Source: a virus. From it: a stretch of DNA of 64,000 bases. Every line of letters begins with the position of its first letter. Within the stretch, counting starts at the first letter, position 1. Below, piece after piece: positions 1-60,489 of this stretch. Position numbers and translations under genes: made by a program. The notes below the pieces were generated by a model. That model made no database searches and had not been told where the DNA came from. It saw only the letters and a program-made list of their open reading frames with translations. Where the stretch lies: IMG/VR virus record IMGVR_UViG_3300009177_000031, positions 24,310 through 88,309 of that record; one strand, 5' to 3'.

Positions 1-4
1 AGCG

Positions 5-3000
5 GTGCGCGGCTTGATGGACCGCTACCGCAAAGCGCTGCACGAAGATCCGAAGGTGCAAGCGCTCGCGCAAGCCGCAGCGGAGAAGCGCGAAGCCGAG
101 CGCAACGCGTTCTACCTGACGTGCGAGCACACCGCGGAGGAGTTCTCGCCGCTCGCCGGCGATCTTGTCACGAAGGAGGACTTCGAGGATCTGACGTTCA
201 AAGCGACCGCTGCAATGGCGCAGATGGGTCTCATCGAGCGCGGTGGCAAAGGCAGCGTTGCTCAGCGCCGCATGCGCGGTGCAATCGTTCCGAAGTCGAG
301 CATGCTGTTGCAGGACAAGCGCAACATGGGTTCGCTTTGGAAGGACGATCAGCTCGAACGTCTCAGCGCGCCGCAGCTGATGGCGGTGCACATTGCAGTC
401 GATGCGCAGGAGTCGTTCTCGAAGGACAACACCTACGAGTACGAGCCTGGTGCGCCAAACGCGAACCGCGACCGCGTGTTCGATCTCATTTGCAGCAAGC
501 TCGGCGTCGACCCGGACGATCAGGTCGCGAAGAACACGCTGAAGCGCAAGCTGGAGAAGACGACGGAAGCGACGCTGCGCGCGATGACGAACTACAACAC
601 CGGACAGGATCCGATGTTCGCGCTCGCGATGACGAAGCGCATCTGTGACATCTACAAGAACGCCGATTGGCTAGAAGACCACAAGAAGAAGGTCGCCGAG
701 GAGCAATCGCGCATTCAGGAGATCCTCGCTGCGCAAGAGGACACGTCGTTCGAGCCTCCACCGTCGATGGTAAACGGCGTTTGGAACGGCAAGACGCTGA
801 AGGATGCGAACAAGCCAGAGAAGGGCGTTTGGGCTCCGTTCGAGTACCAGAAGAAGTACATCAACTGGATGCTCAAGGCGAAGCGCGGTGTGATTGCAGC
901 CGATGCCGGCATGGGCAAGACGCCGATCGTGATCGCGTTCCGTGAGCTGCTTGCATCGCAGGGCAAAGACGTTCCTGCCATTTGCTTCCTACCACCGTCG
1001 TTGATGGAGCAGTGGCCTGCGGCGATCCAGAAGTTCGCGCCAGAGAACGCCGACAAGATCCTCAACCTCAGTGGTCTCTCGTTGGAGGAGCGCAAGGTCG
1101 CTTTGCAAAGCGACATGGCGAAGAAGGCTCGCTACATCTTCATCAGCACCGGCACGCTCACCGGTGACGTGCCGGATCCGAACTCGACGGAAGACGAGAA
1201 CGATGGCACCGGTGGTTCTGACCACGAGATGGTCGAGATCCTGAAGAACCTCGAAGGCGCGGTGTTCATCGACGAAGCGCACCAAGGCGGTTACAAGAAA
1301 GCCGGCAACACGCGCCACGAGATTGCAAAGGCGGTGATGGAGGGTCGCGAGTACGCGTTCGGCATGACGGCTACGCCGATGCCAAACGATCCGATGGACG
1401 TCTATCACCTCGCGAACCTGTTTGCGCCTGGCAGCGTTGGTGACGCCGAGCTGTGGGCTGGTCGCACCGCTGGTGTGGCGTGGAACGAAGAGGAAGGTCG
1501 TTATGAGGTGTCGAACCCGGAGCACCTTGCAGAGCTGAACCAGCGCCTCAAGCCGTTCGTGTTCTACAAGAGCGTCAACGATCCAGACGTCGTGAAGGAC
1601 ATGGGCAAGGGTCTTCCGCAGAAGACCGGTGTGCACGAAGACTCAGCGATGCACGAGGGTGAGGGCGATCTGAATCTGTCAGGTCACTCGAACGCGCAGA
1701 ACGGTTTGTCGCAGCACGACTACTTCAAAGAGGGTGGTGTCATTGACACCATGATCGAGCTGCGCATCGCGCGTTTGGTGCGCGAGCGAGCGGAGAAGAT
1801 TGCAAACGGCGAAGTGAATCCTTCGACCGGTGAGCCGTACAAGGCGTACCACCCCAAGTTCCTTCAGCTGATGGCTGGCGGCATGAAGATCATGCTGCAA
1901 CGGCAAGCGTCGATCTCGCCAGCGCTCATCGATCACACGTATCGCAAGTCCGATGGTGGCGTTGCGCACTCGCCGAAGATCAAGGCGCTGTGCGATGACA
2001 TCGTCGCGCACTTCTCAAACGGTGGTCAGGGTGGTGACGACGCGAAGCCGCTCGTCGTGTTCTCATCGTTCCCTGGCAAAGCGTTTCCGCTCGTGCGCAA
2101 AGCGCTCGCCGAACGCGGTGTGGATCCGTCGCTCATCGAGACGATTGCAGGCGACGTCGCTCCGACGGAGCGCGGCTACATGCAGGACAAGCTGAACAAG
2201 GGCCACGCGAAGGTGCTCCTTGTCGGCACGATGTCAGGTGGCGCCGGTCTGAACCTTCAGGAAGCGGCGAACAAGACGCTGTTCCTCGATGAGCCGTGGA
2301 ACCCGGCTGCAAAGCGTCAGGCGATTGGTCGCGTTTGGCGCACCGGACAGAACAACGTCGTGCACGAGAAGACGTACCGTTCGGTTGGTACGTACGACTC
2401 GGTGGTGGAGCAGAAGATCGCAGGCAAGCAAGCGATGGTCGCTGCGCTTCTCGGAAAGGACATGCCGACGGAGGCATCGTTCAAGCCGGACACGTCGATC
2501 AAGGAGCTGCTTGGTCGCGTGAAGGGCACCGACTACACCGAGGATCAGATCAAAGCGATCATGGAGAACTCGAAGAACTACGATTTGGCTTCGAGTGAGC
2601 ACAAGCAAGCCGAACAGCTTTTGCAATCGATGCACGATGAGGATTGGAAGGAGAAGGCCGGTGGTCAGGGCTTCGGTGGTGGCGTTTCCGCAACGCTGAC
2701 CGACAAGGACTTCGAGCCGAACAAGGAAGCGCAGAAGACGCTCAAGAACAAGGGCGCGCACAAACTCACCGAAGCGTTCGATGAGAAGGAGTTCCGCGGC
2801 AAGTGGGAGATGGATCGCGATAAGCGCCGCTCGAAGCAGAACTACGAGATGGCGAACCTGATGGCTGACGTGTACAGCCAGCAAGGGAACAAAGAGAAAG
2901 CTGACGAGTACAAGCGTCGCGCTGACGAGCTTGCCGAGAAGTACCCTGAACTCGGTGGTGCAAAGGACGGTGGTGCGAAGAAGAAGGGCAAGGACGAGAA

Positions 3001-3628
3001 GCCGAAGGCCGAGAAGAAGGGCGACGAGAAGAAGCCTGCGAAGGGTGGCGACAAGAAGCAATCGAAGGAAGGTGGCGAGAGCGAGCAAACGAAACCGCCA
3101 CCGCGCGCGACTGCAACGGTTGCTGACGCCGAGCACGAGCTGAAGCAAAAGGCGAAGGCGCAGGACGCGCACACCAAGACGCAAACGGAGAAGGTGAAGC
3201 AGCGCAAGCCGCAAGAGACGACGAACAAGCTCGGTGGCAATCCTGACGAGCAAGAGGCGCCGGTCAAGCCGGCGACCTTGAAGCAGCCGGTGGTGAAGCG
3301 CAACGAAGCGCTCGGTGTCGACTTCCACTCGAAGGACAATCCGTTCCCGGAGAACGGACGCAAGGTGAAGGGCACCGACGTCTCGAACGCGGAAGCGAAC
3401 TACGTACTCGATGTGCTGCACAAAGAGAAGAAGCTGAAGTCGTGGGACGAGTTCATCACGACGCACATCAAGCCGGTTTGGGACGAAGAGGACGGTCGCA
3501 ATCCGTTCTCGATGAAGGCTGCGCACGAGTACGTCGGCAAGATCGTCGACGCGATCTCGAATCAAGGCTTGATGACGCTCAACGAGCCGATGAAGGCTGC
3601 GAAGAAGCAGACCAAGAAGGAGAAGTAG
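5..3628 (+). CDS. Large SNF2-family helicase/ATPase, 5'-partial, in the head module
   Basis: Motifs YQ..ADAGMGKT (I), FIDEAH (II), MTATP (III), SPKIKAL, VVFS, SGGAGLNLQ (V), QAIGRVWRTGQ (VI). K/E-rich C-terminal tail. The frame is open to the window edge. Confidence 0.9.
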   Translation: MRGLMDRYRKALHEDPKVQALAQAAAEKREAERNAFYLTCEHTAEEFSPLAGDLVTKEDFEDLTFKATAAMAQMGLIERGGKGSVAQRRMRGAIVPKSSMLLQDKRNMGSLWKDDQLERLSAPQLMAVHIAVDAQESFSKDNTYEYEPGAPNANRDRVFDLICSKLGVDPDDQVAKNTLKRKLEKTTEATLRAMTNYNTGQDPMFALAMTKRICDIYKNADWLEDHKKKVAEEQSRIQEILAAQEDTSFEPPPSMVNGVWNGKTLKDANKPEKGVWAPFEYQKKYINWMLKAKRGVIAADAGMGKTPIVIAFRELLASQGKDVPAICFLPPSLMEQWPAAIQKFAPENADKILNLSGLSLEERKVALQSDMAKKARYIFISTGTLTGDVPDPNSTEDENDGTGGSDHEMVEILKNLEGAVFIDEAHQGGYKKAGNTRHEIAKAVMEGREYAFGMTATPMPNDPMDVYHLANLFAPGSVGDAELWAGRTAGVAWNEEEGRYEVSNPEHLAELNQRLKPFVFYKSVNDPDVVKDMGKGLPQKTGVHEDSAMHEGEGDLNLSGHSNAQNGLSQHDYFKEGGVIDTMIELRIARLVRERAEKIANGEVNPSTGEPYKAYHPKFLQLMAGGMKIMLQRQASISPALIDHTYRKSDGGVAHSPKIKALCDDIVAHFSNGGQGGDDAKPLVVFSSFPGKAFPLVRKALAERGVDPSLIETIAGDVAPTERGYMQDKLNKGHAKVLLVGTMSGGAGLNLQEAANKTLFLDEPWNPAAKRQAIGRVWRTGQNNVVHEKTYRSVGTYDSVVEQKIAGKQAMVAALLGKDMPTEASFKPDTSIKELLGRVKGTDYTEDQIKAIMENSKNYDLASSEHKQAEQLLQSMHDEDWKEKAGGQGFGGGVSATLTDKDFEPNKEAQKTLKNKGAHKLTEAFDEKEFRGKWEMDRDKRRSKQNYEMANLMADVYSQQGNKEKADEYKRRADELAEKYPELGGAKDGGAKKKGKDEKPKAEKKGDEKKPAKGGDKKQSKEGGESEQTKPPPRATATVADAEHELKQKAKAQDAHTKTQTEKVKQRKPQETTNKLGGNPDEQEAPVKPATLKQPVVKRNEALGVDFHSKDNPFPENGRKVKGTDVSNAEANYVLDVLHKEKKLKSWDEFITTHIKPVWDEEDGRNPFSMKAAHEYVGKIVDAISNQGLMTLNEPMKAAKKQTKKEK

Positions 3629-3631
3629 GCG

Positions 3632-4096
3632 ATGCCAAATCGCGAGAAGTCGAACCACGTCGTGTTCCGCACCGTCAATCGCGGTGACGGAAAGAAGGGC
3701 ATCGAGGCGCACACGCCTGAGAAGGTGCTTCCGATCCACGACAAGAAGGAACTCGAAGCGCAGCTGAAGCACTACGCGAAGTTTCTTCTATCGCTGACGA
3801 CAGGAAGTAACGTCGCTGCGCGTCGGAAGTATGTCGAGCTGATTCGTCCGGCGCTGCGCTACTACTGCAAGAAGTTCAACGTGCAGGCACCGAAGTGGCT
3901 CGCAAACGACGACTACTACACCAAGACGATGGACACCGCGACGAAGCAGCAGATGTTCGGCATGCGCCCGCTTCGCATCGGGGAGTTTCAGAAGCTGAAG
4001 CCGGTCGAAGGTGTCGAGAGCGTTTCGTATCCAGGCAAGGAGCCGGATGCGGAGGAGCAAGGAGCAAAGGCAAATGGGCAAGCCCCTCAGCGATAA
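3632..4096 (+). CDS. Hypothetical protein (head module)
   Basis: 154 aa ORF starting 3 nt after the SNF2 stop, with typical codon usage. Confidence 0.75.
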   Translation: MPNREKSNHVVFRTVNRGDGKKGIEAHTPEKVLPIHDKKELEAQLKHYAKFLLSLTTGSNVAARRKYVELIRPALRYYCKKFNVQAPKWLANDDYYTKTMDTATKQQMFGMRPLRIGEFQKLKPVEGVESVSYPGKEPDAEEQGAKANGQAPQR

Positions 4097-5027
4097 GCAA
4101 CGAGAGAAGATCAGCAAGCTGATTGCTGACCATCACCTCGCGTTTGCCGTCGAGGTGCTTGGGCCTGACGCGATTCCGCGCGCTGAGCTTCAGCGTTTGC
4201 AGCGTGAAGGCATCCTGAAGCAGCACGAAGTCGAGCACGCGCAGGTTGCGATTCCAGCTGCGCACATGCTTGGCAAGCAAGCAGCGTCAAACGCGCAGCT
4301 CGCGCGCATGCCGCCAGAGCAGTTCTGGCAGTTCATCGAGCACGCACCGCCGCAGTTCAGCAAGCACGATCTCGACGCGATGAACGCGGCGAAAGCTGTG
4401 GTTGGTCGTTTGATCGTCAACCTCGGTGTCGGTTTGCTCAACGAGTTCGAGAGTGCCAGCCATGAAGAAGCAGCAAAGCTTCGTCAGGAAGCGTTGGGGG
4501 TTGTACAACACGAGGTTGCGCTCGGCATCGCACGACGTTCTGCGAAGGAGAAAATCCAGCGTCGCTTGCGAGACAAGCTCGGCGAGTCGGAACGCAATTG
4601 GGCGCTTGTGGTACAAACCGAACTCCACAACGCGCAGGAGTACGGCAAGGCGCTCGGACTCGGCGCTGACGGGCGAGACCCGATCGTCTACAAGCGGCCA
4701 CGTCCTGACGCTTGTCGTTTCTGCAAGCTCCTGTACCTCGTCGATGGTGTACGTCCTCGTCTCTTCCGTCTCTCAGTGCTCGTGAAGAACGGCACGAACT
4801 ACGGAAAGCGTGCGCGACGTCCTTCGTTCCGTGGTGCAGGCGCAACGGAATGGAAGGCGACCGTCGGCTGCGTGCATCCTGGTTGTCAGTGCGAGATGCA
4901 CCAGATGCCGGAAGGCATGACGTTCGACAAGCAGGGGAAGCTCGTTGCGTCTGTGCGCAAGAGCATCGAGCCTGACGTTCTCACCGCCGATCTTCGGAAG
5001 CTCATCGGTCACCGGTGCGTCGCATGA
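4074..5027 (+). CDS. MuF/SPP1 gp7-like minor head protein
   Basis: QTELHNA..G, DACRFC and VHPGCQC match the MuF T-E...CxxC...HPxCxC pattern. ATG 4074 follows GGAG. Confidence 0.75.
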   Translation: MGKPLSDKQREKISKLIADHHLAFAVEVLGPDAIPRAELQRLQREGILKQHEVEHAQVAIPAAHMLGKQAASNAQLARMPPEQFWQFIEHAPPQFSKHDLDAMNAAKAVVGRLIVNLGVGLLNEFESASHEEAAKLRQEALGVVQHEVALGIARRSAKEKIQRRLRDKLGESERNWALVVQTELHNAQEYGKALGLGADGRDPIVYKRPRPDACRFCKLLYLVDGVRPRLFRLSVLVKNGTNYGKRARRPSFRGAGATEWKATVGCVHPGCQCEMHQMPEGMTFDKQGKLVASVRKSIEPDVLTADLRKLIGHRCVA

Positions 5028-5893
5028 CTCAGCTCGAAACCATCGTGAAGCGGATGAAGCCGGTCTCGATCAAGATGATCGCGGAAGGCAACGTCGGCGC
5101 ACGTCTGGTGACGTATCCGAACGGCGCGCAGGTCGTGATGAAGATCTGTTCGTCTGTAACGACGAAGAACCAGCGCACGACGCAACGCGGTCTGCCCACC
5201 GAGACAGAACCGAAGCGCGAAGTCGCGTTCTATCGGCTGTGCAAGTTGCTCGGTTGGGACATCGTGCCGGAAACCGTTTTGGGCGAATTCGCCGGTTTCC
5301 CTGCGTCGTTTCAGCAATACATGACGGCGGCGAAGCTCTACGACGTGGAGCCGCGCCTGCGGAACCCGGGCAAGAACAGGGTGGCGTGGCAGATCGCGCT
5401 GCGCGAAACCTTGCGAGACAAGGTTCCATTTGAAGACACGCTGCGCCTGACAGTGCTAGATTTCCTGGCAGGGTCGCGCGATCGTCATGCTGCTAATTAT
5501 GGTGTTCGTTTGGATGTGTCTGCCAACAAAGCTCGTTGGCGACTCATCGGTTGGGACAACGGTTGCTCGTTTGGTTTGACGCAAGCGTTGTACAAATGCG
5601 TCGCTCACAAGTGGGTCTTCCGTTACGCGTTCGATCTGTCGACTGTTTGGGATGACCTTCGACGCATTCGACGTTCAGAACTCGCTTCTGCACTGAGTGG
5701 CCTGATCGACGACGAAGCTATCGACCACGTTTGGCATCGAGTTCAGTTTGTACTCACGTTTCCACATCGCATGCCGTGGAAGACGCTTTCGCAAGGGCAT
5801 GACGACGGTGACTCCTTTCCGTCGTACGCAGAATGGTTCAAACCGATGCTGGGCACCAAACCCTTCTACATCTTGCAAACGCAGGCGCTGTAG
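5024..5893 (+). CDS. PI3K/PI4K/HipA-fold atypical kinase
   Basis: VMK lysine, KREVAFY..LG..IVPET, catalytic loop DFLAGSRDRHAAN, WDNG metal-binding motif. ATGA overlap with the MuF stop. Confidence 0.8.
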   Translation: MTQLETIVKRMKPVSIKMIAEGNVGARLVTYPNGAQVVMKICSSVTTKNQRTTQRGLPTETEPKREVAFYRLCKLLGWDIVPETVLGEFAGFPASFQQYMTAAKLYDVEPRLRNPGKNRVAWQIALRETLRDKVPFEDTLRLTVLDFLAGSRDRHAANYGVRLDVSANKARWRLIGWDNGCSFGLTQALYKCVAHKWVFRYAFDLSTVWDDLRRIRRSELASALSGLIDDEAIDHVWHRVQFVLTFPHRMPWKTLSQGHDDGDSFPSYAEWFKPMLGTKPFYILQTQAL

Positions 5894-5917: not shown

Positions 5918-6664
5918 ATGCGTGACAACGACCTTCTAGACGGCAAAGACGACTTCTTGATTTGGACGCCGAGCTGCGTCGAGATCATCATGAAGGCTGG
6001 TGTCGACATCGAGCGCACGCGTCCAATCGGTGGAACGTGTTCGACCGAGCGTCTCGATCGCCAGGACGAGAAGGTGTTCGCGAAGGGACTCGACTTCAAC
6101 GAGTTCGTGAACCACGGCTACTTCAACGACAACCACAAGCAGAACACGGCTGACATCCTCGGCTATCCGAACATGGCCGAGCTACGCAAGGGTCGTTGGT
6201 GGACCGAAGGCAACTTGCTTCTCGATTGGGAGCCTGCAAATCGTGTTTGGGCGCTCGCGAAAGCGCTCTCAAAGAGCACTGCGAAACGCAGGCTCGGCTT
6301 CTCGATCGAAGGCAAGGTAACGGAGCGCGGTTACGACAACCGCATCACGAAGGCGATCATTCGCCACGTCGCAATCACCAATTCGCCGGTGAACACCGAT
6401 TGCACGTGGGACATTCTCGCGAAGGCGTTTGGCTCGATGGAGGAGCTGGAAGGTGCTTCGTTGCGTCGCGCGCTGAGCGCGGGTGCTTCGTCGCCGGGTT
6501 CCAGTGGAGGCGCAGCGCTCGCAGGTGGGCGTGTGGAGCGCAAGCCGATCGAGCTGACGTTCGACGAAGCGGTGAAGGTTCTTAAAGCGCATCGTCCGCA
6601 GTACGCGTGGGGAACGTGCGAGCGGCTCGCTCGTGTGATTTTCAAACAAGAACGGAGGAACTGA
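5918..6664 (+). CDS. Prohead protease
   Basis: ST..LDRQDE, NDNH, GFSIEG and VAITNSPVN motifs of HK97/Herelle-type maturation proteases; lies upstream of the capsid gene. Confidence 0.88.
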   Translation: MRDNDLLDGKDDFLIWTPSCVEIIMKAGVDIERTRPIGGTCSTERLDRQDEKVFAKGLDFNEFVNHGYFNDNHKQNTADILGYPNMAELRKGRWWTEGNLLLDWEPANRVWALAKALSKSTAKRRLGFSIEGKVTERGYDNRITKAIIRHVAITNSPVNTDCTWDILAKAFGSMEELEGASLRRALSAGASSPGSSGGAALAGGRVERKPIELTFDEAVKVLKAHRPQYAWGTCERLARVIFKQERRN

Positions 6665-7504: not shown

Positions 7505-8524
7505 ATGGCAAATCCAAGCCAAGACGAACTTCTCGCCGAGCTGGATAAGCTGGAGAAGTCGACGCTCAAGAAGGGTGGCGACGCACTTCAGAACGCCCCA
7601 CACGACGGTGGTTTTGCCACCCAAGGGACGAACATCCAGGAGAAGGCGAAGAAGATGTACAAGGCTCTCCGCAAGGGAGGGTTCTCGAAGAAGGAAGCGA
7701 AGAAGGCCGTCTACAAGGCGTTCGGCGACGAGGAAAGCTCGTCGGACGAGTCTTCGGCGATGTCTTCGGTCGAGAAGGCGATCGGAAGCGCCGATTCGAT
7801 GTCGAGCGATGATGCGAGCGGCGATGACGAATCGTCGGATGGCACGTCGAGCGAAGACGAATCGTCCGACGAGTCTTCGGCGATGTCGTCGCCGATGAAG
7901 AAGTCGACCGGCGCTGCGGCGATGGCGAACGCTGTCGCTGGCGCGAAGCCGCAAGAGGATTCGATTCGCAAGGCGCTCACCGACGAGCATCCTGACGTCG
8001 CTGGTGCGCTCGATGCGGTTCCGATTCTCGGTCAGCTGATCGACGCAATCGATCGCATGGCCAAGGGCGGTGGCAAGTCGAGCAAGAAGGCGCTGGGCAG
8101 CATTCGCAAGGCGCTCGTCGCCGAGTCGGAAGCGCGCAACGACTTCAACAGCCGTCTCGCGAAGGCGCTCGTGCACATGACCGGGCGCATGATCGGCATC
8201 GAGGATCTCGTGAAGAAGATGGCGAGCGAGCCGGTGAACACCGGCAATCGTCAGCCGTCGCTTCGCAAGAGCGATTTGCAGCAACCGTCGTTTCACGATG
8301 GCGGTACGCAGCGAATCACCGGTGGCAACGGCGATCCCAACCAGGTGTCGCCGCTGACGCAACTTCCCTACCTGCAAATCCAAGAGGCTCTCACCGAGCT
8401 GTGCATGAAGGGCGGTGCCGAGCTGATGGACATCACGAAGTTCGAGAACAGCAAGGGCGACCTGCGGCTGTTGCCGCCGAACGTCATCGAGCAACTGGAG
8501 AAGCGTCTCTGCGCTGCGGCGTAA
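7505..8524 (+). CDS. Capsid scaffolding-like protein
   Basis: Immediately upstream of MCP; acidic low-complexity SSDESSAMSS repeats, coiled coil, many [ILVM]xK[SAG] motifs; AAGGAG RBS. Confidence 0.7.
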   Translation: MANPSQDELLAELDKLEKSTLKKGGDALQNAPHDGGFATQGTNIQEKAKKMYKALRKGGFSKKEAKKAVYKAFGDEESSSDESSAMSSVEKAIGSADSMSSDDASGDDESSDGTSSEDESSDESSAMSSPMKKSTGAAAMANAVAGAKPQEDSIRKALTDEHPDVAGALDAVPILGQLIDAIDRMAKGGGKSSKKALGSIRKALVAESEARNDFNSRLAKALVHMTGRMIGIEDLVKKMASEPVNTGNRQPSLRKSDLQQPSFHDGGTQRITGGNGDPNQVSPLTQLPYLQIQEALTELCMKGGAELMDITKFENSKGDLRLLPPNVIEQLEKRLCAAA

Positions 8525-8565: not shown

Positions 8566-9966
8566 ATGGAAGGCAATCACGTTGGTCTGTCTGACTACGA
8601 GGGACTGACCGGGTTCGGTCTGCTCCCGACCGGAGACACCGAGGAGATCCAAAAGGCTCTCTCGGCCGGCTACCAATCGCCGCGTCACGACGGCGGTTCC
8701 GCACTGCGCGTGGAGTCGCTCGAAGCGACGCTGCGCATCCTCACGTTCTCGCAAGGACACGTGAAGCTCTGGAAGGACATTCCGAAGCTTCCGGCGTACT
8801 CGACGAGCGAGGAGTACACCGTGCAAACGGCGTACGGCGGTGAGAACGGACCGTTCACTCGTGAAGGCGAGCTTCCGCAAGTCCAGGATGCGACGTACGA
8901 GCGTCGTGTCGAGCTGGTGAAGTTCCTCGGCACGCAGCGCGAAGTGACGCATCCGGCGACGCTCGTGCGCAATGCGTACGGCAACATCATCGCTCGCGAG
9001 ACGCAGAACGGCGCGATCTGGCTGATGGAGCGTCTGGAGCGCAACCTGTTCCGCGGTCAAGCGTCGGTCATCCCGGAGTGCTTCGACGGCATCGACGAGC
9101 AGATCCTCCGCGATCCGTTCGCGAGCGCGAACAACGTGCTCGATCTTCGCGGCGGTCCGATCACGGAAGACGTGATGGAAGAGGCGACGAACATCATCGT
9201 GGAGAACTACGGTCTCTCCTCGGCGCTGTACCTCGCACCGCGCGCGCATTCGGACATGTCGAAGCAGTTCTACTCGCGTCAGCGCGGTGGCTTCGGCGAG
9301 CGCGAGGGTCGCATCGGCTACTCGGCGAAGATGATGGAGACGAACGCGGGCGACATCGCGCTTCGTGGCGACATCTTCCTGCGCAGCGGCAAGAACAACG
9401 GCGTCAAGACGGCACCGGCCGGCCAGACGTCGGTGCGCGCGCCGAACGCTCCGACGACGGTCACGGGCGCGCACGGCGCGAACGCTGGCTCGCTGTTCGG
9501 TGCGGCGGATGCCGGCACGTACCAGTATTGCGTCACCGCGCTGAACCGCTTCGGCGAGTCGGCGCTGACGCAGGTTGCTGGTGGCGTTGCGCCGGTGTCC
9601 GGTGACGCGGTCACGCTCACGATCACCGATGGTGGTGGTGGTGACACGGCCACGGGTTACCGCGTCTACCGCTCGAAGAACGGTGGTGCGGTGGGCACGG
9701 AGCAATTCGTGCTCGACATCCCGCGTCCGACCGGCGCGGCGACGACGGCGTTCGTCGACGTCAACCAGTTCCTGCCAGGCACGTCGCGCGCGTACCTGTT
9801 GCAGATGAACCTGCAATCGCTGTCGTTCCGACAGCTCGCTCCGATGATGAAGATCCCGCTCGCGACGCTCGCCGCGTCGATCCGCTGGATGCAGCTCATC
9901 TACGGAACGCCGATCGTGTACGCACCGCGCAAGAACCTGATCCTCATCAACGTCGCCGACGACTGA
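8566..9966 (+). CDS. Major capsid protein (SPO1/Twort/A511-like)
   Basis: 466 aa; IQKALSAGY...GSALRVESLE..L..LT N-terminus, FDG, VLDLRG, and an Ig/FN3-like insertion (YQYCVTA..GES, GYRVYR) as in Herelle-type MCPs. Confidence 0.92.
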   Translation: MEGNHVGLSDYEGLTGFGLLPTGDTEEIQKALSAGYQSPRHDGGSALRVESLEATLRILTFSQGHVKLWKDIPKLPAYSTSEEYTVQTAYGGENGPFTREGELPQVQDATYERRVELVKFLGTQREVTHPATLVRNAYGNIIARETQNGAIWLMERLERNLFRGQASVIPECFDGIDEQILRDPFASANNVLDLRGGPITEDVMEEATNIIVENYGLSSALYLAPRAHSDMSKQFYSRQRGGFGEREGRIGYSAKMMETNAGDIALRGDIFLRSGKNNGVKTAPAGQTSVRAPNAPTTVTGAHGANAGSLFGAADAGTYQYCVTALNRFGESALTQVAGGVAPVSGDAVTLTITDGGGGDTATGYRVYRSKNGGAVGTEQFVLDIPRPTGAATTAFVDVNQFLPGTSRAYLLQMNLQSLSFRQLAPMMKIPLATLAASIRWMQLIYGTPIVYAPRKNLILINVADD

Positions 9967-14134: not shown

Positions 14135-15925
14135 ATGTCTCGTCAAGTTCTCTTCAACGGCGCAGTTCTGGTGCGTCCAGGCGCGTACACCAAGATCGAC
14201 GCATCGCAGTTCCAGAGCATCGTGCTCAACGGCATCGGTGTCGTCGGCATCATCGGCAACGCCGATGGCGGACAGCCGCGTGTCGTGCAGATCTTCAACA
14301 GCGCCGCAGCTGTGAAGGCTGCATATCGCAGCGGTGACATCGTCGAAGCCGCAGGGATTCTCTGCAATCCTGGCAACGACGATCTCATTCCTGCGGGCGC
14401 GCAAACGATCGTCACCTACAAGGTGAACAATGGAACGCAGGCGACGCTCGCAGCTGCACCGTTCACGTTCACGTCGAAGGATTGGGGGCTGTCGCAGAAC
14501 TCGATCAACGTGCAGCTGACATCGCAAGGTGGCAACCTGCGCACGTTCATCTCGCAGGGTCTCGATCAGCTGAGCAACCTGATCGTCGAGACGTCGCCGC
14601 AGTTCGGCGATCCGACGAAGTACGGCAAGTTCACGCTGAAGTACAACGGCACCGGCACGGCTGCGACCGTCACGATCACGTCGACGACGCTCACCACGAC
14701 GGTTACCGCTGGTCCTGGTAGCGAGAACCTCGCGATCACGTTTGCGAACTTCGCTTCTCTGAACGACATCCTGTTCTTCATCAACGGCTTTGCCGGCGGT
14801 GTTTACGTCGCGACAGCACTCATCACGAACGCGCTGTCATTCAACCCGGCGAACCTCGATGCGGTCTCCGCGCTCGATATCAAGACGACGGCGCTGACGC
14901 TGATGGCGAACAACTTCGACGTCAGCGACTGGATCAACAACAACAGCCAGCTGATCACGTGCGTGCTGACGCAGGGACAAACCGGTCCTCGCGCTGCGCT
15001 CACGCTCACGGCTCTCGCTGGTGGAACGCTCGGCACGAGCGCGAACGCCGATTGGGTGACCGGCTTCACCGCTCTCGGTGGTGTTCGCATCAACCAGGTC
15101 GTGCCGCTCGCATCTGCGGATGCAACGACGGCACAAGGCACGTACACGATTGCGTCGGTCAACGCCGGTTTGCAATCGCACTGTTCGTTGCTGAGCGCGA
15201 CCGCAGGCAAGAGCGAGCGTCAAGGTTGGGCGTCGTTCTCTGGAACGAAGACGAACCTGATCCTCGCGGCGCAGGGCCTGAACAGCCAGGACGTTTGCAT
15301 CAGCTCGCAGAAGCTGACGCGGCAGAGCGCGGTCACCGGCAACATCACGCAGTTCCCGGAGTGGTCACTGTCGTGTGTGCTCGCAGGCATGCGTGCAGGC
15401 GCACCGCTCGGCGAACCGCTGACGCACAAGTTGATCCTCGCGACCGCAATCGCGAGCGACGCATCGTGGTCGCCGAGCACGACGCAAGACGTGATCGATC
15501 TGCTTCTGAACGGCATCATCCTGGTGACGTCGGTGCAGGGTCGTGGTTTCCAGATCGAGAAGGGAATCACGACGTACACCAAGAGCAACAACGACGCCTT
15601 CATCGAGGAGACGATCGTCCAGTGCTGGAAGTACATCGCGTTCACGTGGCGCACGAACCTGGAGAACCGCTACACCGGCCGGCCGATGGACATCGGTCAG
15701 ATCAAGACGGTGATTCCGTTCTCTGTCTCGGTGTTGAACGGTTTGCGCCAGCAAGGCGTCATCACCGACAGCCTCGTGAACGGCGTGCAAACGCCTGGCT
15801 TCAGCAACCTGCAAGTCACTGCGAGCGGTGACGTGCTGAACGTGTCCGGCAACGTGCAACCGACGTCCGGCATCAACTTCATCTTGAACACCGCAGTGCT
15901 CGTTCCGGCGCAGTTCTCGGTCTGA
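14135..15925 (+). CDS. Contractile tail sheath protein
   Basis: RPGAY N-terminus, G.ADGG.P, LAGGT.G, EPLT.K, GITTY, P...INFI C-terminus; 596 aa. Confidence 0.92.
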   Translation: MSRQVLFNGAVLVRPGAYTKIDASQFQSIVLNGIGVVGIIGNADGGQPRVVQIFNSAAAVKAAYRSGDIVEAAGILCNPGNDDLIPAGAQTIVTYKVNNGTQATLAAAPFTFTSKDWGLSQNSINVQLTSQGGNLRTFISQGLDQLSNLIVETSPQFGDPTKYGKFTLKYNGTGTAATVTITSTTLTTTVTAGPGSENLAITFANFASLNDILFFINGFAGGVYVATALITNALSFNPANLDAVSALDIKTTALTLMANNFDVSDWINNNSQLITCVLTQGQTGPRAALTLTALAGGTLGTSANADWVTGFTALGGVRINQVVPLASADATTAQGTYTIASVNAGLQSHCSLLSATAGKSERQGWASFSGTKTNLILAAQGLNSQDVCISSQKLTRQSAVTGNITQFPEWSLSCVLAGMRAGAPLGEPLTHKLILATAIASDASWSPSTTQDVIDLLLNGIILVTSVQGRGFQIEKGITTYTKSNNDAFIEETIVQCWKYIAFTWRTNLENRYTGRPMDIGQIKTVIPFSVSVLNGLRQQGVITDSLVNGVQTPGFSNLQVTASGDVLNVSGNVQPTSGINFILNTAVLVPAQFSV

Positions 15926-15942
15926 AAGAAAGGAGCTGAGCA

Positions 15943-16431
15943 ATGGCGGCAGAACTTCCATTCAGCGACGTCGGCACACGGACTTTCTCCGGTGCGCGTG
16001 CGCGCTTCTACTTCAACGGTACGCAGGTGGCGTACGCATCAGGCTGCGATGGGTCCGAGGAGATCCAAATGGAGCCTGTCGAGGTGCTGGACAACCTCGC
16101 GGTGAAGGAACACGTTCCGGTCGGCTACCGGGTGACGTTCAACGCGAGCATCTTCCGCACCGTCGCGAGCGGCGCGAGCACGGATGTGGCGCCTGGCTCT
16201 CTCAAGGAGCAAGGCATCTTTCCGAAGTTCGGTACGCGCGGTGAGCGCATCCTGCAACTGACGCCTGTCACGGTGTTCATCCAGGATCGCAACAGCGGCA
16301 AGGTGCTGTACGTGATCGAGGGCGTCAAGCCGTCGTCGCAAAACTTCAGCATCACGGCGCGCGGTGTCGTGGCGCAGAACGTCTCCTTCGTCGCGATCAC
16401 GATGAAGGACGAAGCCGAGATCAACGCGTAA
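15943..16431 (+). CDS. Tail tube protein
   Basis: 162 aa right after the sheath; SGAR, EHVP.GY, QNVSF.A. Confidence 0.85.
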   Translation: MAAELPFSDVGTRTFSGARARFYFNGTQVAYASGCDGSEEIQMEPVEVLDNLAVKEHVPVGYRVTFNASIFRTVASGASTDVAPGSLKEQGIFPKFGTRGERILQLTPVTVFIQDRNSGKVLYVIEGVKPSSQNFSITARGVVAQNVSFVAITMKDEAEINA

Positions 16432-23324: not shown

Positions 23325-24241
23325 TCGCGCGGCGGCGAATCGGTCAAGCAGGTATCCGTGGTGCTCGGGTAGCCGGCAAGTACCCTGCGTTCTCGAAGGG
23401 CGTGCCTGTCGAGTGCGTCGTGATCGCGGTGTATTTCATCGACGACACCGGCAACCTGTCGAAGAAGTACACCGAGTACGACGTCAAGGATCTGCGCACC
23501 GGTCAGATCTATAACAACGTGCGTCGCGTCGATTCGGTTGCAGGCATGGATGACGGTGAAGAGAACGTGCTCCGTCCTGCGCAGAAGCTCATCGGTGCGC
23601 AATCGTCCTCGTTCGATCCGAAGATCGATCAGCTCTCACAATCGGACGGCGACCGCGTTGCGGTGACGTTCAGTTACGGTGCGCAGCACACGCCGGTCAT
23701 CACCGACGTGCTTCCACATCCACAGCTCTCGTACGGTACGACGAAAGCGCAAGGGCAGCGTCGTTTCCAAACGCACAAGGGTACGTCGATTGAGACGAAG
23801 TCGGATGGCACGTACCAGATCAAGCGCAACGACACCACGATCACGCTCAACGCCGATGAGACGATCGACATCGTTCACAAGAGCGGTTCGGTGATGCACT
23901 TCCGCGACAACGGCGACATCGAGGCGACTGCAAACGCGAACATGGTCGTGGACGGTCAAGCGGTCATGCTCGGCACGAGCACAGCGGCAATTCACCCTGC
24001 ACCAGAATTCGATGTCTATCGCGCATCTGAGACCACGCTACACGTAGCACTAACGGCACTGGTCACTGCAATCGGTGCGTTTGGAACAGCGACAGCTGGC
24101 GACCCGACAATGGTGATTCACCCAATCACGGTTGCAGCTGCAACTGCACTCACCGCAGCCACGGTTCCGGCGATTGCTGCGATTCAGGCGTTCGAGGCTG
24201 CGGCTGCTACGTACCTGTCCAAGAAAGTCACCAACGAGTAA
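23321..24241 (+). CDS. Baseplate central spike (gpV/gp5-like)
   Basis: OB-like N-terminus (GDRVAV.F..G...P), short beta repeats (H.GT.I...DG; H.SGS.....NG). Confidence 0.7.
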   Translation: MIARRRIGQAGIRGARVAGKYPAFSKGVPVECVVIAVYFIDDTGNLSKKYTEYDVKDLRTGQIYNNVRRVDSVAGMDDGEENVLRPAQKLIGAQSSSFDPKIDQLSQSDGDRVAVTFSYGAQHTPVITDVLPHPQLSYGTTKAQGQRRFQTHKGTSIETKSDGTYQIKRNDTTITLNADETIDIVHKSGSVMHFRDNGDIEATANANMVVDGQAVMLGTSTAAIHPAPEFDVYRASETTLHVALTALVTAIGAFGTATAGDPTMVIHPITVAAATALTAATVPAIAAIQAFEAAAATYLSKKVTNE

Positions 24242-24245
24242 AACC

Positions 24246-26450
24246 ATGGCTGACATCACCGAAGACCCTAGCGTAAAGATGCCGCCACTCGCCAATTGGG
24301 TGGCTCAAACGTTTGCGTATGGCTTCTTGCTCGATCGCTCGGCAGTGCTGGACTACAGCGGCAACGCTGCGCCCAATCAGAGCGGACGCTCTGGTTTCGA
24401 CAGTCCGCAGCCTGACGATTTGCATTTGCTCAACCTCAATCCGCAACAGCTGTCGATGCAAGAGCCGCTCGCTACGGCTATCGCTCCCACGCAGGGCGGT
24501 GGTAAGTTCATCGAGTCGCGCGGTGGCGTGATGAAGACGCTGACGATCCACGGCACCACCGGCTTCCTTCCGCCTGTCGCTCCGTACGCGACGCACATGC
24601 GTCAGCCGTCATCGCTCATCGACGTGTCGAGCACAGGCACCGAGCTGATCACGTCGCCGAATCCGTCGGTGCAACAGAACCAAACCGGCTTCTTCGAGTT
24701 CTACCGTTTGCGGAAGCTGTTCCGGCAATTCGGTTTGGAACGCAAGCAAGGCAAGGCAGTGCAAATGCACTGGCTGGACTTCAAGGGTGACGAGTTCTGG
24801 ATGGTCGAGCCGCAGTCGTTCGACATGGACCGCACGCGGTTCGGCTACGTCTACAACATCCGTTGCAACCTGATCATGCCTTCGCAGCTGAAGCTGAAGC
24901 ACAAGGACCAAGGTCAGGATGCGAAGATTCGTGGTCTCGATTCGCGCGACTACGGCGCGGCGTTGCTGAAGAACCCGATCAACGGTGCGCTCGATCCGTC
25001 GCAGCTCAGCTTGCTCACGCGCATGACGCAGATGGCGAACGGTGCAGCTGCGTTCGTCAACAACTACGCGCTCGGCGTGGTCGGCTTGAAGCTGCAAGGC
25101 ATCCTCAGCGCAATCGGTGCCGTGCAGCAATTCTTCTCGGACATCGCAGCGGTTCGGCGAGCTGTGCTCGACACCGCGCTGAACCTCTACAAGCAAACGT
25201 ACAGCGCGATCCAAGGGCTGTCGGATGCGTGGGATGACGTCACGCCGGATGCCTTCAAGAAGGACATCAACGAGTGGCAGATCGAAATGCAGGGCGTGAC
25301 CGAAGGGCTGATGAACAACCATTTGCTCACGTTCGGTGCAAACGCGCTCGGTTTCCAGAGGGAGAACCAGAAGTACACCACACCGCTCGCTGTCGGCGGC
25401 ACGAAGACGGCGTTGCTCACCGAGACGTCGAACGCGAGCCAACAGGTGACGCAGGTCAGCGCTGGTCTCGCACTGATCGGCAACATCGAGCAAATGATGT
25501 CGACGACGGCAATGCGTGCCGAGGACATCCTCAGCGGCGAGACGATCTTCGACATTGCGCAGCGATGCCTCGGTGATGCAAACCGCTTCATCGATCTGGT
25601 GCTCATCAACCAGCTGAAGCCACCGTTCATCGTCTCTGACCTTGCAAACAAGCTTCCTGGCACGCTCGCGTGGACGGAGAAGATCCTCGTTCCTGCGAGC
25701 GAGGAGTCCGCGTCGATCAGCTCGGCCGCACCGGTGCAATCCGCTGTGCCTTCGTTTGCAGGCTCTGTTGCAGTGGTTCCTGTTTTTCCGCTCAGCCCTA
25801 CGCTGCAATTCCTCATCACGACGCCGCAGGTGCCGTACCGCGATGAGATGTGGCTCGGTTTCACGGTGACGTGGTTGACCGGGAGCAACGCTGGTCAGAC
25901 GCGCGTCATCACCGACAACACGAACCAGGGTGACGGTACGACGCTGTTCACGTGCAATCGCGCGCTGTCGAATCCTGTCGTGGTCGGTGACACGTTCTCG
26001 GTGTCGCTCATCCTGTTCACGTCGCGCAAACCGGTGACACCGGAGAACGCGGCGTACGGCATGGACATCATGGGTGTGTTCGCGAAGTCGAACGGCATCA
26101 ACACGGATGGCACGATCGACATCTTGCTCGGTCCGACGAAGGACCTAGCCACGATCGAGGGCATCGAGAACTTCGAGCAAGCCATCACGCTCGCTTTGCA
26201 AACGCCGCGTGGCTCGAACAAGTCCAATCCGCTTTACGGCACGTCGAACGTGATCGGCCGGATGTTGGAGCCGAACGTTCTCGCGCTGAATGTCTTCTAC
26301 GTTCGTCAGTCGCTGTTGCAGGATCCGCGAATCGCTGCGGTCGAAAGGCCGCAGATGGTTTACGACAACGACACTGGAGCGCTCTACTTCACTGTCTACG
26401 TCCGTCCTGTCCGAGTGCAGCGCACTTTCTTCCTTCGCATTCCAGTCTGA
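24246..26450 (+). CDS. Multidomain baseplate protein (tube-initiator-like + LysM-like + gp25-like wedge)
   Basis: LNPQ...I.G.TG N-terminus; GETIFDIAQRCLGD..R...L...N LysM-like segment; C-terminal G..N..QAI...L.TP.G....P.YG...L.QDPRI. Confidence 0.7.
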   Translation: MADITEDPSVKMPPLANWVAQTFAYGFLLDRSAVLDYSGNAAPNQSGRSGFDSPQPDDLHLLNLNPQQLSMQEPLATAIAPTQGGGKFIESRGGVMKTLTIHGTTGFLPPVAPYATHMRQPSSLIDVSSTGTELITSPNPSVQQNQTGFFEFYRLRKLFRQFGLERKQGKAVQMHWLDFKGDEFWMVEPQSFDMDRTRFGYVYNIRCNLIMPSQLKLKHKDQGQDAKIRGLDSRDYGAALLKNPINGALDPSQLSLLTRMTQMANGAAAFVNNYALGVVGLKLQGILSAIGAVQQFFSDIAAVRRAVLDTALNLYKQTYSAIQGLSDAWDDVTPDAFKKDINEWQIEMQGVTEGLMNNHLLTFGANALGFQRENQKYTTPLAVGGTKTALLTETSNASQQVTQVSAGLALIGNIEQMMSTTAMRAEDILSGETIFDIAQRCLGDANRFIDLVLINQLKPPFIVSDLANKLPGTLAWTEKILVPASEESASISSAAPVQSAVPSFAGSVAVVPVFPLSPTLQFLITTPQVPYRDEMWLGFTVTWLTGSNAGQTRVITDNTNQGDGTTLFTCNRALSNPVVVGDTFSVSLILFTSRKPVTPENAAYGMDIMGVFAKSNGINTDGTIDILLGPTKDLATIEGIENFEQAITLALQTPRGSNKSNPLYGTSNVIGRMLEPNVLALNVFYVRQSLLQDPRIAAVERPQMVYDNDTGALYFTVYVRPVRVQRTFFLRIPV

Positions 26451-26458
26451 GGTAGCCG

Positions 26459-49331: not shown

Positions 49332-49771
49332 AGATCCTCCACATCGAAGACGACGCGTTCCTACAGCGCGCTGTGAAGCGCACGCTCGAACGTGCGTTTG
49401 GCGAGCACACGGTGGTGGAGAGCGTGGCTGACGCACCGACGGCGATTCGCTACCTACAGGCAGCGCTCGCGACGTTCGGCTGCTTCCACTACGACCACAT
49501 CATCAGCGACTACAACCTCACCGAAGGCACCGGTGGTGACGTGCTCGCGTGGATCAAGAACACCACCGACGCGATGCTCAACGACTGGCAAACGGCGTTC
49601 GACGGCAAGTCCTCGCGTCAGGTGTTGCTCGAACGCTTCACGTTCCTCACGGCGAATCGCGATGCGCTCGCGCTGCACGATCGGTTCATCGAGAAGCCAA
49701 TCCGGCCTAGCACGCTGGCGAGGCTTCTGAGCACGAAGGGACCGCTGCGCATCACGAACGAGATCGGCTGA
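49328..49771 (+). CDS. Single-domain response regulator (receiver, CheY-like)
   Basis: ILHIEDD, IISDYNL (phospho-Asp), FLTA and EKP all intact; GTGA overlap with the GHKL gene. Confidence 0.85.
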   Translation: MKILHIEDDAFLQRAVKRTLERAFGEHTVVESVADAPTAIRYLQAALATFGCFHYDHIISDYNLTEGTGGDVLAWIKNTTDAMLNDWQTAFDGKSSRQVLLERFTFLTANRDALALHDRFIEKPIRPSTLARLLSTKGPLRITNEIG

Positions 49772-59875: not shown

Positions 59876-59876
59876 C

Positions 59877-60485: not shown

Positions 60486-60489
60486 GGCG

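Follow-up and report, generated by a model that had tools for sequence, protein, structure and literature searches.

A head-gene block of giant enzymes, a MuF-like protein and a coupled atypical kinase as a candidate capsid-delivered set in a Herelleviridae-like phage

We propose that a block of genes in the head module of this phage encodes enzymes, a MuF-like protein and a kinase that may be loaded into the capsid and delivered to the host, a reading to which we give a probability of about 45%. By analogy with known systems, the block's proteins are probably loaded into the capsid, and precedents among MuF-effector and polyvalent proteins suggest that they would be ejected from it. The window, the whole 64,000-nucleotide stretch of DNA that was analysed, spans positions 24310–88309 of the whole record (G000), which was read to place the start of the upstream gene. 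Judged by its genes, the source phage is a member of an uncultured SPO1-like/Herelleviridae-like myovirus lineage; its capsid protein shares 35–39% identity with those of SPO1-like phages and matched 676 phage records. The SNF2, MuF-like and kinase genes and the downstream protease, scaffold-like and capsid genes all lie on the same strand (Table 1). The first-pass annotation had placed a cassette of three genes directly upstream of the protease, scaffold and capsid genes. The genes are real and every named element is present, but a conserved 154-aa gene separates SNF2 from MuF, and the three form just the downstream end of a ~14-kb block whose start follows the portal gene directly and lies beyond the window.

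Table 1. Features of the head-gene region in window coordinates
Feature	Position	Strand	Basis
SNF2 giant protein, C-terminal 1208 codons	1..3628	+	ORF, Pfam, phrog_62
Basic 154-aa protein	3632..4096	+	tblastn relatives; without family match
MuF-like minor head protein, 317 aa	4074..5027	+	profile relatives, BFVD neighbours, phrog_115 via orthologue
Atypical kinase, 289 aa	5024..5893	+	motifs, AlphaFold2 model, Foldseek
Prohead maturation protease	5918..6664	+	phrog_1028, E 1.4e-44
Two small conserved ORFs, 117 and 131 aa	6666..7468	+	between protease and scaffold-like gene
Scaffold-like protein, named by position	7505..8524	+	location as in SP-10, CP-51
Herelleviridae-type major capsid protein	8566..9966	+	phrog_752, E 1.7e-87

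The 14-kb block sits between the portal and prohead-protease genes and is absent from all five cultured Herelleviridae examined, in which portal, protease, scaffold and capsid genes are directly adjacent. Downstream of it, the C-terminal part of the protease repeats a segment from the N-terminus of the capsid protein (motif HMM, E 2e-5), the 117-aa and 131-aa ORFs had no match in Pfam, PHROG or NCBIfam, and the scaffold-like gene, placed where SP-10 and CP-51 have their annotated head scaffolding proteins, encodes a Ser-rich acidic tract at about residues 83–137 (ORF counted from 7478). The upstream part of the block comprises four giant genes, encoding an 843-aa protein, a NUDIX plus 2H-phosphoesterase protein, a SAM lyase and a 1500-aa SNF2 protein; their predicted multidomain products are of the 'polyvalent protein' type. 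All except the NUDIX–2H protein carry an N-terminal PGSRGG signature, and a scan of the 25 related loci obtained through the kinase gave 14 further instances of the motif PGSRGGK(F/W)(W/Y)RD. The signature was not found in the kinase and did not match the segment common to this phage's capsid protein and protease. The predicted cargo domains vary and appear to be carried on conserved N-terminal modules; together with the ADP-ribosyltransferase of one relative, the NUDIX–2H, SAM-lyase and SNF2 genes look like an anti-defence arsenal.

The giant SNF2 ATPase reported inside the stretch is present, but the window edge cuts its gene: an open frame extends from window base 2 to 3628, and the ATG lies at G000 23435, 874 nt upstream. 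The full product has a conserved N-terminal module of ~500 aa bearing PGSRGG, a helicase core at residues ~542–1229 and a further ~270 aa, and it matches SNF2-rel_dom (E 3.8e-15), ResIII and Helicase_C in Pfam and phrog_62 (E 1.6e-50). Among the 13 relatives scanned, the SNF2 module was found in 6, and the N-terminal module stood alone without a helicase (467–482 aa) in 6; one relative joins an ADP-ribosyltransferase domain to its SNF2 protein (ADPrib_exo_Tox, E 1.4e-13).

The downstream part of the block, judged from related loci, is an invariant trio of the 154-aa protein, the MuF-like protein and the translationally coupled kinase. In essentially all related metagenomic loci these genes and the protease keep their order: of the 24 loci having upstream DNA, 23 have MuF before the kinase (in L027, the one exception, a 224-aa CxxC ORF takes the MuF position), and all 22 having downstream DNA have the protease after it. 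The trio was also found in 8 of 10 loci identified through the capsid protein that had at least 4 kb upstream, and the two lacking it were the furthest removed, with capsid identities of 41% and 32%. The proposed synteny of MuF, kinase and SNF2 therefore divides: MuF, kinase and protease are conserved together, but the linkage of SNF2 to the head genes is not stable. The 154-aa protein (pI 9.7) is directly upstream of the MuF-like gene in every case, has tblastn relatives in 22 of the 25 related loci, and had no match in Pfam, PHROG or NCBIfam.

Several indirect lines of comparison mark the 317-aa protein as a divergent minor head protein of MuF-like type, in agreement with the first-pass annotation. 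Its ORF runs from 4011, with the likely start at the ATG behind AAGGAG at 4074, and it has an invariant Cys/His cluster (C214, C217, H268, C271 and C273) in a CxxC...HPxCxC arrangement that we take to be typical of MuF. The protein itself had no Pfam or PHROG match, and a search of this genome with PF04233 at E ≤ 1 found nothing; PF04233 appeared below threshold in 3 of 32 family members and, among 53 distant relatives, in 2. Half of the BFVD structural neighbours (25 of 50 rows) are named head-morphogenesis, MuF or minor capsid, an orthologue matches phrog_115 'minor head protein' (E 1.6e-6), and homologues adjoin the portal gene in the cultured phages SP-10 and YungSlug. With hhalign, the family reached probabilities of 14–16% against SPP1 gp7 and about 1% against Mu gp30. 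A profile search recovered 1669 relatives at E ≤ 1e-3; of the best 150, 102 are at least 450 aa long, match at the N-terminus and have a long C-terminal extension. A domain scan of 53 long relatives, a choice biased to long proteins, yielded InPase (44), PolyA_pol (13), Zeta_toxin (4), ddrB-ParB (3), RelA_SpoT (2), SAM lyase (1) and LPD1 (1), named in Pfam 'Large polyvalent protein-associated domain 1'; the scanned extensions hold enzyme domains of polyvalent-protein type. InPase and LPD1 reportedly also come from the 2017 work of Iyer et al.

The kinase gene is coupled to the MuF-like gene by an ATGA overlap (ATG 5024–5026, TGA 5025–5027) that is directly visible in the sequence. Its catalytic motifs are VVMK (K40, 5141–5143), REVAF (E66), SRDRHAANYG (D153–N158; DRHAAN at 5480–5497) and WDNG (D178–G180; DNG at 5555–5563); across 41 homologues K40, D146, R152-D153-R154-H155 and D178-N179 are invariant and E66 and N158 at least 90% conserved. 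An AlphaFold2 model (pLDDT 89.8, pTM 0.89) gave 126 Foldseek matches in the PDB at E ≤ 1e-3, headed by PI4KIIalpha (5e-7), Fam20C, CtkA and HipA. The model thus predicts an atypical kinase with a type II PI4K/CtkA/HipA-like fold and an intact catalytic set, and the K, E, DRHxxN and DNG motifs, the overlap and the PI3K/HipA fold described at first pass were all borne out. The kinase reached the cut-off of no Pfam or NCBIfam model; TIGR03843 (SCO1664 family) matched at E 1.1e-8, below that model's cut-off. None of 45 homologues, 234–334 aa throughout, contained a Pfam domain. In tblastn the kinase had no match in 50,697 phage records, and cultured relatives lack it; a search of 185,579 prokaryotic species, each represented by a single genome, gave one weak match, suggesting that it occurs only in this phage lineage. 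No fusion to MuF was seen in 148 new proteins among the best 150 MuF relatives, and the kinase was not found inside any longer protein, which is weak evidence.

If the block is delivered, its proteins would be produced together with those of the head and incorporated into the procapsid; late co-transcription is only assumed here, because promoter and terminator scans gave nothing above chance. MuF would be located at the portal, like SPP1 gp7, and the kinase would travel with it in place of the C-terminal enzyme domain fused in many MuF relatives, while the giant proteins would enter through their conserved N-terminal modules. Upon infection, the proteins would exit with the DNA and act ahead of any phage gene expression: the SNF2 ATPase might target DNA or defence proteins bound to it, signalling nucleotides would be the targets of the 2H and NUDIX domains, and the SAM lyase could counter SAM-dependent restriction while the kinase phosphorylates a host protein.

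Strict conservation of the kinase, set against the variable putative effectors, suits a role in the core head module no less than that of an exchangeable effector; conservation on a par with structural genes is not usual for an arms-race effector and counts against delivery, as do the kinase's lack of the PGSRGG signature and the failure to find it fused to MuF. The kinase could instead be a morphogenetic enzyme that phosphorylates phage head proteins in the producing cell or procapsid, which we regard as unlikely, even though its presence does not vary across the lineage and its place between MuF and protease is fixed, as for a structural-module gene. An acidophilic, casein-kinase-like activity would find its most attractive substrate in the Ser/Asp/Glu-rich scaffold tract, where phosphorylation would tune scaffold–capsid binding or scaffold exit. 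Within the scaffold-like protein, the 40-aa window richest in acidic residues holds 4–18 Ser in the 16 kinase-positive loci and 2–6 in 7 kinase-negative relatives (one-sided Mann–Whitney p 2.4e-4), observations that are not independent because the loci are related, with just 7 controls. Base composition alone cannot explain this contrast, since GC spans 43–69% across kinase-positive loci, and the basic character of the kinase family (median pI 9.2) also favours such a role. However, the nearest fold is type II PI4K and not Fam20C, a limited literature search found no precedent for phage scaffold phosphorylation, and Pfam detected no phosphatase or phospho-binding domain in 53 of the 54 ORFs from 15.9 kb onward or in the 15 main ORFs before.

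Somewhat less doubtful is that the kinase is made late and acts unpackaged in the cytoplasm of the producing cell, perhaps along with the giant proteins, in host takeover or in blocking abortive-infection defences, the head-operon position reflecting shared timing only. T7 gp0.7 works inside infected cells and is not known to be packaged, and we detected neither a targeting signature in the kinase nor its fusion to a head protein. Tight coupling to the MuF-like gene is nevertheless kept across relatives of 31–77% kinase identity, fused enzymes are very frequent in MuF relatives, and SAM lyase and SNF2 anti-restriction would be most useful ahead of phage gene expression, an argument well established for T4 Alt and P1 Dar. 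Least probable of these alternatives is phosphorylation of a lipid, nucleotide or other small molecule. Type II PI4-kinases phosphorylate phosphatidylinositol, the DRHxxN/D-x-G signature is presumably of PI3K/PI4K type, and the nearest ESM Atlas clusters are PF00454-annotated (53% of members in the closest); yet most bacteria lack phosphoinositides, and CtkA, HipA and HipT, the characterised bacterial relatives of the fold among the structure matches, are protein kinases.

Capsid delivery, the reading we prefer, has partial counterparts in several known systems. The kinase shares with type II PI4K, CtkA and HipA/HipT a fold over about 240 residues, and its catalytic set of Lys, Glu, a DRHxxN-type loop and a metal-binding D-x-G loop matches theirs; it is compact and has 16–18% identity to PI4KII. 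Like P1 DarB, to which it had been likened, the SNF2 protein is a very large phage-encoded helicase-motif protein proposed to ride in the head. That likeness holds in part: a weak match to phrog_10089 'DarB-like antirestriction' (E 8e-9) covers only the generic helicase C-terminal region, the core here is SNF2-type, and the Pfam scan found no methyltransferase domain. As with SPP1 gp7 and Mu gpF, the MuF-like gene is a head-module gene associated with the portal, with structural neighbours carrying MuF or head-morphogenesis names and a TE-x-H segment in register with gp7 residues 146–202; unlike them, it escapes PF04233, and its N-terminal half is long and helical. In T4, Alt and the internal proteins are late products that enter the prohead via a short common N-terminal signal; the signature common to three giant proteins here, PGSRGGK-aromatic-aromatic-RD, is a candidate counterpart although unrelated to the T4 targeting sequence, and the ADP-ribosyltransferase domain of one relative is a further parallel to Alt.

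The closest precedent is the work of Iyer, Burroughs, Anand, de Souza and Aravind (2017), which in the sections covered here describes MuF-effector fusions and virion-delivered polyvalent proteins with SNF2, 2H and kinase domains, counts ddrB-ParB and a zeta-toxin-like kinase among the domains of polyvalent proteins, and cites T7 gp0.7 as a precedent for a phage kinase acting on host proteins (PMC5512222), an example that would suit an unpackaged enzyme. Unlike those fusions, the enzyme here is a separate, translationally coupled gene, and its PI4KII/HipA-like type matches neither of the two kinases described in those sections, one a truncated Ser/Thr/Tyr kinase, the other a zeta-toxin-like kinase in fusion with MuF (PMC5512222); the block also differs in its place, as an insertion that parts the portal gene from the protease gene of a Herelleviridae-like genome. 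Relatives of the MuF-like protein carry the ddrB-ParB and zeta-toxin-like domains that those sections assign to polyvalent proteins, and also InPase and LPD1. Alike, in the same sections, are giant multidomain proteins beside portal and head genes, SWI2/SNF2, 2H and kinase domains, MuF as a head-associated carrier, and proposed delivery with the DNA (PMC5512222).

The phage record, of which the window takes up bases 24310–88309, is linear, 88,309 bases long and 75% complete by CheckV estimate, with a GC content of about 59% and all main coding frames on the + strand. Its capsid protein shares 35–39% identity with those of SPO1-like Herelleviridae (676 phage records matched) and the first 9 kb of DNA matched no phage record, together indicating an uncultured, distant, high-GC relative of that family. 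The portal, protease, scaffold and capsid genes directly adjoin one another in all five cultured Herelleviridae examined, indicating that the 14.1 kb lying here between portal and protease is a lineage-specific insertion. The first-pass annotation had described a cassette directly upstream of the protease, scaffold and MCP genes; its genes were confirmed, but what it had seen was only the downstream end of this insertion, the full extent of which includes four giant proteins. Promoter and terminator scans of the DNA gave counts at or under shuffled expectation, and no terminase gene turned up in the 20 kb examined upstream of the window.

Features of the portal–capsid region. Coordinates are those of the window, of the whole record (G000) or of two stretches of the same record read upstream of the window (L001, L002).
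Feature	Position	Strand	Basis
Portal	G000 14292–16097	+	PF04860, E = 2.6e-21
843-aa protein, no assigned function	L002 11703–14234; starts 4 nt past portal stop	+	ORF reading
NUDIX + 2H phosphoesterase protein, 755-codon ORF	after 843-aa gene	+	NUDIX, E = 3.8e-13; PF13563, E = 6.4e-11
SAM-lyase protein, 781 aa from ATG (828-codon ORF)	L002 16464–18809	+	PF23780, 31.1 bits (cut-off 28)
SNF2 protein, 1500 aa	G000 23435–27937; L001 626–5128; ends at window 3628	+	PF00176/PF00271
154-aa gene	window 3632–4096	+	gene map
MuF-like gene	window 4074–5027	+	gene map
Kinase	window 5024–5893	+	gene map
Prohead protease	window 5918–6664	+	gene map
Two small genes	between protease and scaffold-like gene	+	gene map
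Scaffold-like gene	window 7505–8524	+	gene map
Capsid gene	window 8566–9966	+	gene map
Tail sheath	further downstream of capsid gene	+	gene map

Several neighbouring features were also recorded. A 538-aa protein encoded just upstream of the portal (L002 8265–9881) had no family match and resembles the middle of the SAM-lyase protein (27% identity over ~300 residues, blastp E = 8e-16), which means that part of the cassette has a paralogue outside it. Ahead of the SNF2 gene, a 226-nt gap (L002 18810–19021) contains a 10-bp perfect inverted repeat and a ~70-codon ORF whose CPCC ... C-x-x-C pattern may mark a small zinc-ribbon protein. The window also encodes, next to each other, an AAA_5 (dynein-related) protein and a CobT-type VWA protein that make up a CobS/CobT-like pair (58715–62634), and 49283–49771 gave a sub-threshold response-regulator receiver match.

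The downstream part of the insertion is conserved as a unit. Among 25 related loci gathered via the kinase, which include near-duplicates (L015/L016, L019/L020, L022/L023 and L013/L014/L028), MuF lies upstream of the kinase in 23, one locus lacks upstream DNA, and the exception (L027) has a 224-aa ORF with a CxxC motif at the MuF position. All 22 loci with downstream DNA have the protease after the kinase, and the 154-aa gene is present in 22 of the 25, so the proposed linkage of MuF and kinase to the head genes holds in relatives. One subclade carries a 192-aa gene of no assigned function, with no PHROG match, between MuF and kinase (L010 1570–2151, L012 9419–9997, and also L015 and L019). 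When loci were instead found via the capsid protein, the 154-aa, MuF and kinase genes occurred together in 8 of the 10 that had 4 kb or more of DNA upstream; the two without this trio are the most distant (41% and 32% capsid identity).

The linkage claimed for SNF2 did not hold up to the same extent. Both lobes of an SNF2 family ATPase score above Pfam cut-offs in the 1500-aa protein (PF00176, 56.2 bits against 24.9; PF00271, 34.4 bits against 23.5), and a match to the DarB-like phrog_10089 is confined to residues 990–1109. The gene product just upstream of the 154-aa gene is 1463–1713 aa with SNF2 domains in only 6 of 13 loci; in another 6, the protein at this position is 467–482 aa and corresponds to an N-terminal part of the SNF2 protein 440–495 residues long. 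In one of the six SNF2-bearing loci (L007 3698–8665), the protein has a further ADP-ribosyltransferase domain of the exoenzyme type at its C terminus (PF03496, E = 1.4e-13) that recalls the T4 Alt enzyme. The remaining cassette genes vary among loci, with 2H in some, NUDIX in fewer and DUF5661 in others, a pattern suggesting that conserved modules carry exchangeable enzymes. The N-terminal module itself gave no usable ESM Atlas match, and three stand-alone versions of it had no PHROG match. A likeness to the P1 antirestriction protein DarB was not borne out: DarB joins an N6-adenine methyltransferase and a helicase in one giant protein, and no methyltransferase family was detected in the 1500-aa protein at E ≤ 0.01 (Pfam). 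The giant proteins have the hallmarks of polyvalent proteins, namely several unrelated enzymatic or conflict domains encoded beside virion genes: NUDIX and 2H share one ORF, SNF2 and ADP-ribosyltransferase are joined in L007, and all lie between portal and protease.

Three of the giant proteins encoded here have in common the signature P-G-S-R-G-G-(K/Q)-F-W-x-D-x-K-G-x-x-x-Y, which runs from residue 12 in the 843-aa protein, residue 8 in the SAM-lyase protein and residue 141 in the SNF2 protein, always after a K-A-T triplet. Of the 25 kinase-derived related loci scanned, 14 have it too, in the corresponding protein. Neither the kinase nor MuF contains it; a regular expression for it had no instance in a set of 231 proteins collected in this analysis, and a 46-aa query around the motif had no match in 50,697 phage records. 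Proteins encoded right behind the portal have it at the extreme N terminus, which suggests that it may serve for loading or anchoring. It is distinct from a second shared element, a segment of ~30 residues (K-A-L ... P ... G-G ... L-R-V-E-S-L-E) at the capsid N terminus (window 8620–8720) that recurs in the C-terminal part of the protease (6440–6530): an HMM of 15 capsid N termini misses the giant proteins (best E = 3.7), and the protease (E = 2e-5) is its sole other match in all six frames of the record. This capsid–protease segment may be a maturation-cleavage or docking site; a search of the literature on Herelleviridae capsid cleavage sites found nothing relevant.

Assignment of the 317-aa protein as MuF-like draws on its relatives. 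The window protein has no Pfam or PHROG match of its own and does not reach the PF04233 gathering score (29.6 bits), and a PF04233 search of the whole record returned no candidate at E ≤ 1. PF04233 was matched below threshold over the whole length by 3 of 32 family members (best E = 5e-4) and 2 of 53 distant relatives (25 bits), and PF25310 was weakly matched by 15 of the 32. An orthologue at 33% identity matches phrog_115 ('minor head protein', E = 1.6e-6) as well as phrog_4728 ('head morphogenesis'). With a structure model of pLDDT 82.7, 25 of the best 50 BFVD neighbours are named head-morphogenesis, MuF-like, GpF-like or minor capsid/head proteins, only three rows reaching E ≤ 1e-3, those being unnamed or intein-bearing relatives; Foldseek against the PDB gave none at E ≤ 1e-3. 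The TE-x-H segment was aligned by hhalign on residues 146–202 of SPP1 gp7, weakly (probability 14–16%, pairwise E = 0.002), and comparisons with the single SPP1 gp7 and Mu gp30 sequences were weak with both 32- and 167-sequence alignments. Cultured Herelleviridae have homologues at 27–32% identity, one of them annotated as a minor capsid protein, and in SP-10 the gene immediately precedes the portal, while in Bacillus phage YungSlug it is close to it; here it has a head-module position between portal and protease.

A profile search returned 1669 MuF relatives at E ≤ 1e-3. Of the 150 best, 102 reach 450 aa or more and 64 reach 800 aa or more, with the MuF-like part N-terminal. Domain scans of 53 long relatives, a selection biased to long proteins, found InPase in 44, PolyA_pol nucleotidyltransferase in 13, Zeta_toxin in 4, ddrB-ParB in 3, RelA_SpoT in 2, SAM lyase and LPD1 in 1 each, inteins in 6 and nothing in 4; the 154-aa protein was not found fused to MuF relatives. 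Taken together, the family and orthologue matches, BFVD names, portal adjacency and fused relatives suggest that the 317-aa protein is probably MuF-like, in agreement with the original call. In YungSlug (L029 1940–7363), the MuF homologue is followed by an 87-aa gene, an 869-aa protein with a PARP catalytic domain (E = 1.2e-14) and the portal, a smaller version of the same theme.

The kinase start overlaps the MuF stop (ATGA), as first reported, and the catalytic motifs noted then (K, E, DRHxxN and DNG) are kept across the family: in an alignment of 41 members, K40, D146, R152-D153-R154-H155 and D178-N179 are invariant, and G22, E66 and N158 are at least 90% conserved. Searching 5.8 billion clustered proteins gave 45 family members, which are 234–334 aa long and lack Pfam domains; the family is basic (median pI 9.2; that of the MuF family is 9.3). 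A bilobal fold of the PI3K/PI4K type was found, with catalytic Lys, DRHxxN loop and D-x-G loop; figures for its relatives are near 15 for CtkA/Fam20, 13.6 for HipT, 12.8 for HipA and about 11 for CotH/mTOR. In the ESM Atlas, the kinase sits beside small prokaryotic and phage clusters annotated PI3K/PI4K. The only sequence-level link is a sub-threshold one to the SCO1664 family (TIGR03843, E = 1.1e-8). PF00454 did not match the kinase at E ≤ 0.01; across the 41 members, sub-threshold matches were to HipA_C in 12, Fam20C in 8 and PI3_PI4_kinase in 5 (best E = 0.009). The family profile matched PDB sequences at chance level only (ribosomal protein L20, E = 0.2; FAM20C, E = 0.67). A HipA-type toxin kinase was rejected, given a HipA_C E value of 0.24, MuF and protease as neighbours and no HTH or HipS-like gene seen. 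No member occurs in 50,697 phage records, and a search of 185,579 prokaryotic species, with one genome for each, yielded a single weak partial match. We conclude that the gene encodes a predicted active kinase of the PI3K/PI4K/HipA branch, in a family of its own.

The likeliest single reading, from gene content, position and precedents, is that the cassette proteins would be loaded into the head during its assembly and ejected with the DNA. This reading fits the giant proteins best; the kinase, by its position, would be a separate, translationally coupled gene standing in for the fused C-terminal enzyme of MuF relatives. The proposal in the first-pass annotation that SNF2, MuF and kinase form a capsid-delivered effector cassette, with the kinase acting on host defence or signalling targets, is partly supported: the genes, the MuF-like and kinase assignments and their linkage stand, but the SNF2 linkage and DarB likeness do not. 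Two points argue against the kinase as cargo. It is invariant, like a structural gene, and no MuF–kinase fusion was found, either in 148 new proteins among the best 150 of the 1669 MuF relatives or, as weaker evidence, in a search for kinase fusions among proteins of 530–2000 aa. A predicted MuF–kinase complex scored 0.00 in both runs, which had no controls and carry no weight for or against binding.

The kinase could instead be an obligatory assembly enzyme, casein-kinase-like, that would phosphorylate the scaffold at its Ser-rich acidic tract, or other internal head proteins, and is not injected, placing head assembly or scaffold release under phosphorylation control in this lineage. The scaffold-like protein here has a Ser-rich acidic tract (15 Ser in 40 residues), such a tract is present in every kinase-bearing locus (16 loci), and the most acidic 40 residues contain 4–18 Ser in these loci versus 2–6 in 7 kinase-free relatives. 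Because kinase-bearing loci span 43–69% GC, base composition alone does not explain the contrast; its nominal p of 2.4e-4 overstates the evidence, as the loci are phylogenetically non-independent. We know of no tailed phage for which such phosphorylation control has been described, a literature search on scaffold phosphorylation found no relevant paper, and we regard this role as improbable. A late function in the cytoplasm is unlikely, though less so, and a non-protein substrate for the kinase seems more doubtful still than an assembly role.

With ready-made enzymes in the capsid, phages can disarm the host's defences ahead of any expression of their own genes, and to our knowledge very few capsid enzyme cargoes have so far been characterised. 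A compact and conserved test case is found in this lineage: a MuF-like carrier is paired with a separately encoded kinase, of a fold not known to have been linked to phage heads before, and the adjoining, swappable giant proteins have conserved N-terminal modules that bear SNF2, 2H, NUDIX, SAM-lyase and ADP-ribosyltransferase domains. Should packaging be confirmed, the kinase would represent a new class of virion-borne kinase, the related loci a natural series for how cargo modules are exchanged, and PGSRGG a candidate targeting signature for loading foreign proteins into capsids. If the kinase acts on the scaffold, it would exemplify control of phage capsid assembly by phosphorylation. The literature, searched for phage kinases of PI4K type that are virion-borne or ejected and for SCO1664/TIGR03843, yielded no relevant paper. 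Passages of a 2017 study (PMC5512222) describe giant multidomain phage proteins beside head genes, MuF as a carrier, SNF2, 2H and kinase domains, and delivery alongside DNA. Those passages and the literature searched do not cover this phage lineage, the portal–protease insertion, the PGSRGG signature or the stand-alone PI4KII-like kinase coupled to MuF, although the supplementary domain lists of that study might include a related kinase. The fused relatives of the MuF-like protein have the same architecture as the MuF–effector fusions in those passages (PMC5512222).
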